Positions 9,300 through 9,411 of a stretch of 11,459 nt of DNA are shown piece after piece. Origin of the DNA: a virus (taxonomy: Duplodnaviria > Heunggongvirae > Uroviricota > Caudoviricetes); the IMG/VR virus record IMGVR_UViG_2690316286_000019, positions 1-11,459 of that record, one strand, 5' to 3'. The notes beneath the pieces are model-generated. The model was not told the DNA's origin. It searched no databases and worked only from the letters and a program-made list of their open reading frames with translations. A program made the translations under genes and the position numbers. How positions within the stretch are numbered: the first letter of the stretch is position 1; every line of letters begins with the position of its first letter.

Positions 9300-9322
9300 A
9301 AAAAAACCGCCTGAGCGCGGTT
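9300..9322 (-). terminator. Intrinsic terminator on the minus strand about 165 nt upstream of the Rha start
   Basis: Minus-strand RNA AACCGC-GCUCAG-GCGGUU followed by a U-run (plus-strand A-run at 9300-9306). Confidence 0.5.
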
Positions 9323-9382
9323 ATGCGCCGTGAATGACTTCGGGGTAGCAATCCCGGCACCCGTTTTATGAGGTGCAGGTGC

Positions 9383-9411
9383 ACTATAATTCCACCCGTT
9401 CTGGTTTTCAA
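9383..9411 (-). promoter_or_regulatory. Candidate sigma70 promoter reading leftward (TTGAAA - 17 nt - TATAGT)
   Basis: Minus strand TTGAAA (plus 9406-9411), 17-nt spacer, TATAGT (plus 9383-9388); predicted start about 55-75 nt upstream of the terminator at 9300-9322. Confidence 0.4.

Follow-up and report, generated by a model that had tools for sequence, protein, structure and literature searches.

An IsrK-family leader RNA and a c4-type antisense RNA predicted upstream of an Rha antirepressor-type gene in a lambdoid prophage remnant

Background

In phage P1, a block of icd translation leads to Rho-dependent polarity on ant. In phage P4, immunity involves a PLE leader with seqA, the CI RNA with seqB, and seqC; CI acts by premature transcription termination and controls the replication genes. 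The elements of the P1 immI region are recorded in the order P1c4 (formerly P51b), a1, b1, c4, a2, b2, icd, ant, and c4 blocks translation at the ribosome-binding site through a2 and b2 (P1 record; 2025 review, PMC12197685). The 'a1' and 'b1' elements are still labelled 'putative' in the P1 record.

A related arrangement, isrK-orf45-anrP, has been dissected in the Salmonella prophage Gifsy-1. There, transcription from the promoter PisrK reaches anrP by reading through the IsrK terminator (Hershko-Shalev et al. 2016, PMC4825925). The mRNA made in this way is translationally silent, and supplying IsrK in trans raises anrP translation about 139-fold (PMC4825925). The transcript, of about 910 nt, covers only the antirepressor gene and the small RNA following it, and processing of the region beyond IsrK yields a stable RNA, STnc1160 (PMC4825925). 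The pairs G28-C162 and G31-C159, tested by compensatory mutation, are functionally important, and the published model is a structural switch in cis by which the ribosome-binding site of an upstream ORF of 45 codons becomes accessible (PMC4825925). The same authors consider IsrK a structural homologue of P4 SeqA and considered it possible that STnc1160 modulates termination at the IsrK terminator; when expressed constitutively, STnc1160 failed to counteract IsrK, and growth arrest was stronger (PMC4825925). The non-coding RNAs isrK and C4 were also noted together near a Bro-N gene in a study of APSE phage.

Here we analyse a locus on the minus strand of an 11,459-nucleotide stretch of viral DNA (the 'window', meaning the whole of that stretch), upstream of a gene of the Rha family. 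An earlier note on this DNA had described a promoter closely followed by a terminator, had predicted from them a short transcript or an antitermination-controlled leader, and had likened the pair to lambda pR'-tR' and to nut-type leaders.

Results

A candidate IsrK-family leader RNA

The promoter and terminator of the earlier note were confirmed, and all the coordinates and distances given there are correct. The elements of this part of the locus are as follows.

9383-9411, minus strand: sigma-70-type promoter, with -35 TTGAAA (9411-9406), a 17-nt spacer and -10 TATAGT (9388-9383); predicted start G9376
9300-9376, minus strand: IsrK-family short RNA and 5' leader of 77 nt, predicted from Rfam RF01394 and from folds
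9345-9351, minus strand: a1 (UUGCUAC), loop sequence of IsrK hairpin 2 that is the complement of C4 a'
9328-9338, minus strand: b1 (GUCAUUCACGG), imperfect complement of the C4 b' loop, with a one-nucleotide bulge
9300-9322, minus strand: intrinsic terminator of IsrK, stem-loop AACCGC-GCUCAG-GCGGUU (9322-9305), U-run to 9300

The promoter TTGAAA-17-TATAGT agrees with the consensus at 10 of 12 positions and has the joint best promoter score in the window. The terminator-like site, AACCGCGCTCAGGCGGTT + TTTTT (9322-9305, T-run reaching 9300), has a GC-rich stem of 6 bp that begins 61 nt past the end of the -10 hexamer. The predicted start at 9376 and the end of the T-run at 9300 delimit 77 nt, which read on the minus strand GCACCUCAUAAAACGGGUGCCGGGAUUGCUACCCCGAAGUCAUUCACGGCGCAUAACCGCGCUCAGGCGGUUUUUUU; a further 167 nt lead from 9300 to the Rha ATG at 9133. 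Taken alone, neither the promoter match nor the terminator match is better than chance in the window, where 15 promoter-like sites were observed (17.3 +/- 3.7 expected from shuffled sequence) and 16 terminator-like sites (12.2 +/- 3.3 expected). The pair nevertheless rises above chance, because it coincides with a full-length Rfam isrK match and because it occupies the same relative position in 93 of 93 homologous loci.

The isrK model (RF01394) matched with 64.8 bits (gathering score 50, E = 2.5e-12) over model positions 1-77 of 77. The -10 hexamer ends 7 nt before model position 1, and the match ends at the T-run. Judged by sequence, the pair is the promoter and the terminator of a prophage copy of an IsrK-family RNA, which, like isrK-type RNAs, has a sigma-70 promoter of its own predicted to start transcription at the first nucleotide of the RNA. 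The short transcript proposed in the earlier note thus corresponds to a predicted RNA of about 77 nt, identified by Rfam as an IsrK homologue.

Within this RNA, hairpin 1 (9376-9357) is followed by hairpin 2 (9356-9341), which carries a1 in its loop, then by b1, and finally by the terminator, whose stem lies 5 nt downstream of b1. In structure prediction, which the earlier note had suggested as a check, the terminator hairpin folds at -8.7 kcal/mol; the fold of IsrK as a whole is only slightly more stable than those of its shuffled versions (z = -1.94). The Rfam model c4-a1b1 (RF03163) gave only a weak match (20.6 bits against a gathering score of 46.7; 9389-9337), overlapping the 5' half of IsrK. 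Despite this sub-threshold score, a1 and b1 can be identified in the window by complementarity.

A predicted C4 RNA and its pairing sites

Between the terminator and Rha lie a second candidate RNA and two segments with which it could pair.

9188-9275, minus strand: c4-type antisense RNA, predicted by Rfam RF01695 (C4; 79 bits against a gathering score of 45)
9233-9223, minus strand: b' (UUCCGUGAUGA), in the loop of c4 hairpin 2
9216-9210, minus strand: a' (GUAGCAA), in the c4 junction
9177-9183, minus strand: a2 (UUGCUAC), 4 nt past the C4 match, identical to a1 and in the position of P1 a2
9153-9143, minus strand: b2 (UCAUCGCGGAG), overlapping the Rha Shine-Dalgarno GGAGG (9146-9142)

Alignment with the annotated 77-nt c4 of P1 predicts a mature c4 of 79 nt, at about 9269-9191. 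It would consist of a 17-bp closing stem, a first hairpin, a second hairpin whose 12-nt loop holds b', and a junction holding a', with a predicted fold of -44 kcal/mol. All seven positions pair in a1:a' and likewise in a':a2; b1 pairs with b' with one bulge, while b':b2 forms 11 bp, including 2 G-U pairs, that span the Rha Shine-Dalgarno. When RNAduplex was run unconstrained, C4 bound IsrK with -51.1 kcal/mol and the Rha leader with -55.9 kcal/mol. As is characteristic of C4-type RNAs, the complements of a' and b' (a2 and b2) are located on the predicted transcript itself, b2 being at the ribosome-binding site of the gene that comes first downstream. The leader idea of the earlier note also holds, in the sense that the predicted IsrK transcript is at the same time the leader of Rha, so that read-through of the terminator would matter, as was demonstrated for the Gifsy-1 homologue (PMC4825925).

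The Rha gene and its surroundings

8386-9133, minus strand: Rha-family gene with ATG at 9133 (Pfam Phage_pRha), the putative regulated gene

In the window the Rha frame is broken at 8795, with an N at 8804 and a 197-nt duplication. An intact homologue has 182 aa and matches Pfam Phage_pRha with 112.4 bits over residues 19-103. The broken frame and an IS1 copy upstream of the site are the reasons to consider decay: the module may belong to a prophage in decay, or an assembly artefact may account for the interruption of Rha. Besides IS1, the upstream part of the window contains a DicF-like RNA, which has a terminator of its own, and an STnc100-like sequence. Downstream, Rha, YdaE, RecE, Gam, an AAA ATPase and the integrase make up a set of early or recombination genes, not late genes; YdaE starts 16 nt past the Rha stop in a related genome. 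No tRNA or tmRNA was found in the window.

RefSeq treats the region differently. In seven identical genomes, of which the CDS was inspected in one, it begins an Rha CDS of 280 aa at ATG 9427, that is, through the promoter, IsrK and c4, and the window-identical copies, for example that of E. coli CFSAN029787 (NZ_CP011416, 554947-555297), carry no RNA annotation at the region. An AUG at the 5' end of c4 (9271) also opens a frame, fused in phase to Rha. This 'frame 0' is stop-free in 61 of 76 non-P1 loci, while of the two remaining frames one is open in 15 and one in 4. We did not accept this as evidence of coding: the region consists mostly of conserved RNA stem, and one conserved stop would account for the asymmetry. 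The fusion from AUG 9271 to Rha is kept as a weaker lead, second to the decoy proposal of the Discussion.

Occurrence and conservation across the family

Sequence similar to positions 9100-9450 was present in 949 of 5426 complete E. coli genomes; among phages, 214 records have such sequence, and many Stx-converting phages carry it. One GenBank record, that of Stx2 phage F004, already has annotations for isrK and C4, adjacent to each other and followed by a CDS.

Homologues were gathered by scanning viral contigs with the invariant 5' 16-mer of c4, which yielded 120 loci; this collection rests on an exact 16-mer, and more divergent members fall outside the sample. Together with P1, Gifsy-1 and one E. 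coli genome copy, they gave 95 distinct regions of 340 nt. Of these, 93 were homologous; the other two, chance matches to the 16-mer, were left out of per-sequence counts and kept as noise in the alignment. The first gene after b2 is Rha in the window and in a large E. coli clade, an ORF6N gene in loci of the Gifsy-1 AnrP type, or an antirepressor gene with Bro-N and P22_AR_C; other loci have a small protein with a weak 'Derepression' match, or, in P1, icd and then ant. By their predicted products, the genes downstream of the module are all of antirepressor or derepression types.

Each of the 93 distinct homologous loci has a promoter-like site (at least 8 of 12 positions) at a distance of 133-147 nt upstream of C4. 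A hairpin followed by a T-tract, in several sequence versions, was likewise present between b1 and C4 in all 93. A count by alignment columns gave only 64% paired for the terminator, Gifsy-type and P1-type terminators being shifted relative to each other in the alignment; because of this shift, the terminator was scored by a hairpin/T-tract scan of each sequence.

The predicted structures are well conserved. IsrK hairpins 1 and 2 were 95.7% and 98.3% paired across homologues, with compensatory changes. The stems of C4 were 89.6-99.2% paired, several pairs being changed on both sides: the 17-bp closing stem stood at 99.2%, and hairpin 1 at 95.2%, with both-side changes at all 5 of its pairs. 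Taken together, intramolecular helices were 91.9% paired, compared to 84.4% in shuffles, with a covariation of 0.240 compared to 0.125 (0 of 500 shuffles); when the partner was slid by 1-3 columns, at most 47.5% were paired.

The pairings between RNAs were examined in the same manner. For a1:a' and b1:b', 74.9% of positions were paired (54.3% in shuffles), with a covariation of 0.507 (0.186 in shuffles; 0 of 500). The corresponding values for a':a2 and b':b2 were 70.9% (53.1%) and 0.369 (0.157; again 0 of 500). Sliding the partner by 1-3 columns clearly lowered the covariation scores of these a/b pairings. Among the 93 loci, 40 distinct C4 cores could be recognised. They bound their own leader with a mean of -37.0 kcal/mol (-25.9 for non-cognate leaders), and their own downstream target with a mean of -31.5 kcal/mol (-22.6 for non-cognate targets). 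The median fraction of non-cognate partners binding as well as the cognate one was 0, and there were none for the type found in the window. The a/b recognition sequences thus co-vary at all three places across 40 specificity types. This joint change in three places is the mark of a c4-type specificity system and shows the short RNA to be a part of it.

Comparison with Gifsy-1 and P1

The Gifsy-1 reference locus scored 79.3 bits with the isrK model, 48.1 with c4-a1b1 and 69 with C4, all three matches lying before anrP. It shares with the window a sigma-70 promoter, a 77-nt RNA that begins with two hairpins and ends in an intrinsic terminator, a c4-family RNA directly downstream that is complementary to the middle part of IsrK (a1), and then an antirepressor-type gene with its ribosome-binding site flanked by a2 and b2. 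The PisrK hexamers, TTGACA and TATATT, are in the same relative position as the window promoter. To place the pairs tested experimentally, Gifsy-1 was numbered from the Rfam start (sequence position 34316 = +1). G28 and G31 then fall in a1 (UUGGCGU, U26-U32), and C159 and C162 in a' (ACGCCAA) of the C4 match; since these residues land in a1 and a', the helix tested in Gifsy-1 is a1:a'. Complementarity of the middle part of IsrK to the downstream orf45/STnc1160 (c4) region, known in Gifsy-1 as helix b-I, is provided in the window by a1:a'. The 45-codon ORF of the Gifsy-1 model itself lies inside the Rfam C4 match.

The two loci differ in several respects. The a sequence is UUGCUAC in the window and UUGGCGU in Gifsy-1, and b is also different. 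The downstream protein is Rha in the one and the ORF6N-type AnrP in the other. The AUG at the 5' end of c4 opens the frame fused to Rha in the window, whereas Gifsy-1 has the 45-codon ORF, which ends at the anrP start. Finally, the module is located in the early-left region in the window, but just after the Q-like antQ gene in Gifsy-1.

With P1 immI (isrK 35.1 bits, c4-a1b1 51, C4 68.8), the window shares the order of elements and similar spacing. The promoter hexamers are nearly identical, the P1 promoter P1c4/P51b reading TTGACC-17-TATAGT. In both, c4 is closed by a long stem and has b' in the loop of a hairpin and a' at the junction; a2 comes directly after c4, and b2 is at the ribosome-binding site of the first gene. 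Between its b1 and c4, the P1 leader, too, has a hairpin and a T-tract. The recognition sequences a and b differ between the two. The first gene in P1 is the small icd, to which the expression of ant is coupled, whereas in the window b2 is directly on the ribosome-binding site of Rha. P1 has in addition a second, C1-controlled promoter, P51a, of which no equivalent was seen in the window.

Discussion

We consider, with a probability of roughly 80%, that the site is the first part of a c4 antisense module of the P1 immI type, placed before an Rha antirepressor-type gene in a lambdoid prophage remnant, and that IsrK relieves the block exerted by c4. The identity and anatomy of the elements, their complementarity and their family-wide co-variation were read directly from the window and its homologues. 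For transcription, partial termination, processing, repression and activation, we reason by analogy with the experiments on P1 and Gifsy-1. Transcription would begin near 9376, and most transcripts would end at the hairpin and U-run (9322-9300), giving a 77-nt RNA with a1 in a hairpin loop and b1 adjoining. Partial read-through of the terminator would produce a transcript containing the c4 RNA (9275-9188) and the Rha mRNA, from which c4 would probably be excised by RNase P, as in P1. Its b' (in the loop) and a' (in the junction) would then pair with b2 (9153-9143) and a2 (9183-9177), covering the Rha Shine-Dalgarno and leaving Rha untranslated. IsrK, which carries near-copies of the c4 targets, would pair either with c4 itself or with the c4 segment of read-through transcripts, and release Rha translation. 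A translational block is indicated because b2 sits squarely on the Rha Shine-Dalgarno. Points against this reading are the weak c4-a1b1 match, the bulge in b1:b', the modest fold of IsrK and the interrupted Rha frame; in addition, the cis-switch model of Gifsy-1 and the translational-repressor model of P1 differ in detail.

The long reading frame offers a quite different view of the region, in which there is no small RNA, the sequence being the 5' part of a longer Rha CDS (ATG 9427, 280 aa) with promoter and terminator as chance matches. The frame from 9427 is indeed open and in phase with Rha, and sites of either kind are no commoner than in shuffles. However, the promoter lies downstream of ATG 9427, and the short form, whose start codon at 9133 follows a GGAGG, has the Pfam Rha domain from residue 19 onwards. 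The presumed extension matches two RNA covariance models above their thresholds and varies by compensatory base-pair changes, not in the manner of a conserved protein; its frame is closed in P1 and in some other homologues, and in the record of Stx2 phage F004 the CDS begins after both isrK and C4. The domain position, the two RNA-model matches and the closed frame in P1 led us to reject the long CDS, which is the least credible of the readings considered, and the RefSeq annotation of the regulatory RNA region as the N terminus of Rha is very probably wrong. Scarcely more credible is a lambda-like antitermination leader (pR'-tR' with Q, or nut with N), in which a phage protein would decide on read-through. 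The likeness pointed out in the earlier note is real as regards architecture, pR'-tR' (6S RNA) and nut leaders having, like the window, an intrinsic terminator close behind a promoter (here about 77 nt downstream) that must be read through to reach what lies beyond, and the homologous module of Gifsy-1 is immediately downstream of the Q-like antQ. The lambda elements are, however, without sequence homology to the site. Upstream of the site, the window contains neither a Q nor an N gene but the DicF-like RNA with its terminator and IS1, and the genes downstream are early or recombination genes rather than late ones. A search for boxA (YGCTCTTTA, at most 1 mismatch) found none from 6179 to the end of the window, that is, within about 2.9 kb on either side, and the 5 boxA-like matches in the whole window compare with 4.9 expected by chance. 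The homology, moreover, extends from end to end to P1 immI and Gifsy-1 isrK, where the documented control is RNA-RNA pairing. The lambda analogy was abandoned on the absence of a nearby boxA and of a Q/N context; the regulator to which homology points is not a protein antiterminator but a c4-type antisense RNA that would act at the ribosome-binding site of Rha. The suggestion in the earlier note that the pair may be the switch for the whole leftward operon found no support either; the homologous transcript of Gifsy-1 is limited to the antirepressor gene and the small RNA after it.

Control could also be exerted on termination, as in P4, where a processed leader RNA pairs with complements up- and downstream much as is predicted for the window. 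A c4-like RNA that paired with a1/b1 or a2/b2 of the nascent transcript would then favour its premature end, either at the terminator of IsrK or, with Rho, at sites in or ahead of Rha, and the promoter-terminator pair would be an RNA-controlled attenuator, besides or in place of the translational block. The position of b1, just upstream of the terminator stem, and the retention of a terminator in 93 of 93 loci are consistent with such an attenuator, as is the model of Rho-dependent polarity on ant after a block of icd translation in P1. The Gifsy-1 authors themselves likened IsrK to P4 SeqA and raised an effect of STnc1160 on termination (PMC4825925). On the other side, the place of b2 on the Rha Shine-Dalgarno points to a translational block, the folds showed no evident alternative anti-terminator structure, and in Gifsy-1 constitutive STnc1160 strengthened growth arrest instead of counteracting IsrK (PMC4825925). 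We regard control by termination as unlikely, though far less so than the two readings discussed above.

The translational c4 module, which we prefer, can be taken one step further. The terminated leader (IsrK) might be a conserved, built-in target mimic, or 'decoy', of the c4 repressor across the whole c4 family, P1 included. This is a tentative proposal, which we hold to be less likely than not. It fits with the presence of a terminator between b1 and c4 in 93 of 93 loci, with the way in which a1 and b1 track a' and b' over 40 types, and with the fact that c4 on average binds its own leader more strongly than its target (-37.0 compared to -31.5 kcal/mol). In Gifsy-1, the a1 mutation G28A in cis raises basal translation (PMC4825925), an effect that a pure decoy model does not predict.

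We regard the system as known, because both RNAs have Rfam families and because Stx2 phage F004 and APSE provide precedents. Judging from its elements, the window locus is an unannotated copy of that system with an a/b specificity of its own, and not a new type of regulator. If it works as in Gifsy-1 and P1, the module would decide on the synthesis of an antirepressor-type protein, and could in this way influence prophage induction or cross-talk between prophages. The three-way co-variation provides a ready catalogue of hetero-immune specificity types. The point of wider interest is that the terminated a1/b1 leader may be a general, built-in counter-RNA to c4; if the decoy proposal is true, a self-contained, specificity-coded antirepressor switch would be set by the balance between terminated and read-through transcripts of a single promoter.

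Frame opened by the c4 AUG

9133-9271, minus strand: frame from the AUG of the c4 antisense RNA into Rha

The antirepressor-type gene Rha lies downstream of the IsrK-c4 module. c4 has an AUG at its 5' end (9271-9269), and the frame that starts there continues in phase into Rha; this frame was compared over 92 homologous loci. In Gifsy-1, the Salmonella prophage with the reference isrK locus, 'orf45' begins at the same AUG. From the c4 AUG to the gene start, this frame was free of stops in 61 of the 76 non-P1 loci; the two alternative frames were so in 15 and 4. In phage P1 the frame is closed after 14 codons. 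The c4 AUG lacks a preceding Shine-Dalgarno sequence, and the cut predicted for RNase P would land inside this codon. In a 'MANRKQ' clade (L017, L022, L030 and related loci), the gene after c4 would encode a 76-aa protein that matches Pfam 'Derepression' weakly (22.3 bits, below threshold); the c4-AUG frame is open there for about 148 codons and spans this entire gene in another frame, either of the two being a candidate coding frame.

Start and integrity of Rha

9134-9427, minus strand: N-terminal stretch of Rha as annotated by RefSeq (PGAP); Rha CDS at 10024-10866 in L001, a related E. coli genome
8605-9003: Rha-internal duplication, with an N at 8804

In an identical E. coli sequence, the RefSeq (PGAP) Rha CDS runs from the ATG at window position 9427 and encodes 280 aa, so that the promoter, IsrK and the c4 RNA all fall inside its first 98 codons. 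This annotation very probably places the N-terminus too far upstream, because the Pfam domain position and the ATG at 9133 with its GGAGG both point to a protein of 182 aa.

A tandem duplication within Rha (197 nt, 94.9% identical), the copies of which lie either side of the single N, cuts the Rha frame off at 8795. This duplication is absent from L001. Together with the N, it looks like an imperfect assembly join rather than biology, possibly one between two similar prophage copies.

IsrK-c4 modules in other genomes

48230-48311 of phage P1: isrK-like immI leader (full-length match to the isrK model at 35.1 bits, under the gathering score)
6925-7189 and 7794-8058 of L059: two complete IsrK-c4 modules on one viral contig

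The P1 match covers the immI leader between P1c4 and c4, where a hairpin and T-tract (ACCGCAGATTTCCGATATTGCGGT ATTTTT) lie between the recognition sequence b1 and c4. On these sequence grounds, P1 too may produce a terminated leader RNA of the IsrK type. The two L059 modules are 869 nt apart, differ in their a/b recognition sequences and are each followed by a Rha-type gene; they could constitute tandem hetero-specific switches.

Other small RNAs and the region upstream of the IsrK promoter

463-602, 521-1765, 1894-2076 and 2256-2376: left-end features of the window
4140-4318, plus strand: RalA antitoxin sRNA, full length (207 bits)
9458-9587, minus strand: STnc100-like sRNA match (33.7 bits; gathering score 47)
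9492-9642 and 10661-10812: 152-nt direct repeat, two copies (97% identical)
9599-9647 and 10768-10818: DicF-like elements (Rfam DicF, 38.8 and 28.6 bits; gathering score 48)
10130-10633: IS1 transposase ORF

At the left end, an IpaH-like ORF with LRR_TTSS and truncated NEL E3-ligase domains is overlapped in its 3' part by the SraC/RyeA-SdsR sRNA pair (118 and 63.6 bits). The Shigella sRNA CssrB (151.6 bits) lies there too, as does a further SraC-like match, which is weak. These features suggest a prophage remnant of the Shigella/EIEC type next to the ryeA/sdsR locus. RalA is the antitoxin in the type I toxin-antitoxin system RalR/RalA, known from the Rac prophage.

Upstream of the IsrK promoter, the sub-threshold STnc100-like match sits between this promoter and a DicF-like element. 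Both copies of the 152-nt repeat contain a DicF-like hairpin/terminator, also below the gathering score, and together they enclose the IS1 transposase gene and 21 consecutive Ns (10639-10659). Faulty scaffolding may have produced the second copy; if that copy is real, the IsrK-Rha module has been severed by IS1 from the upstream early-left operon.
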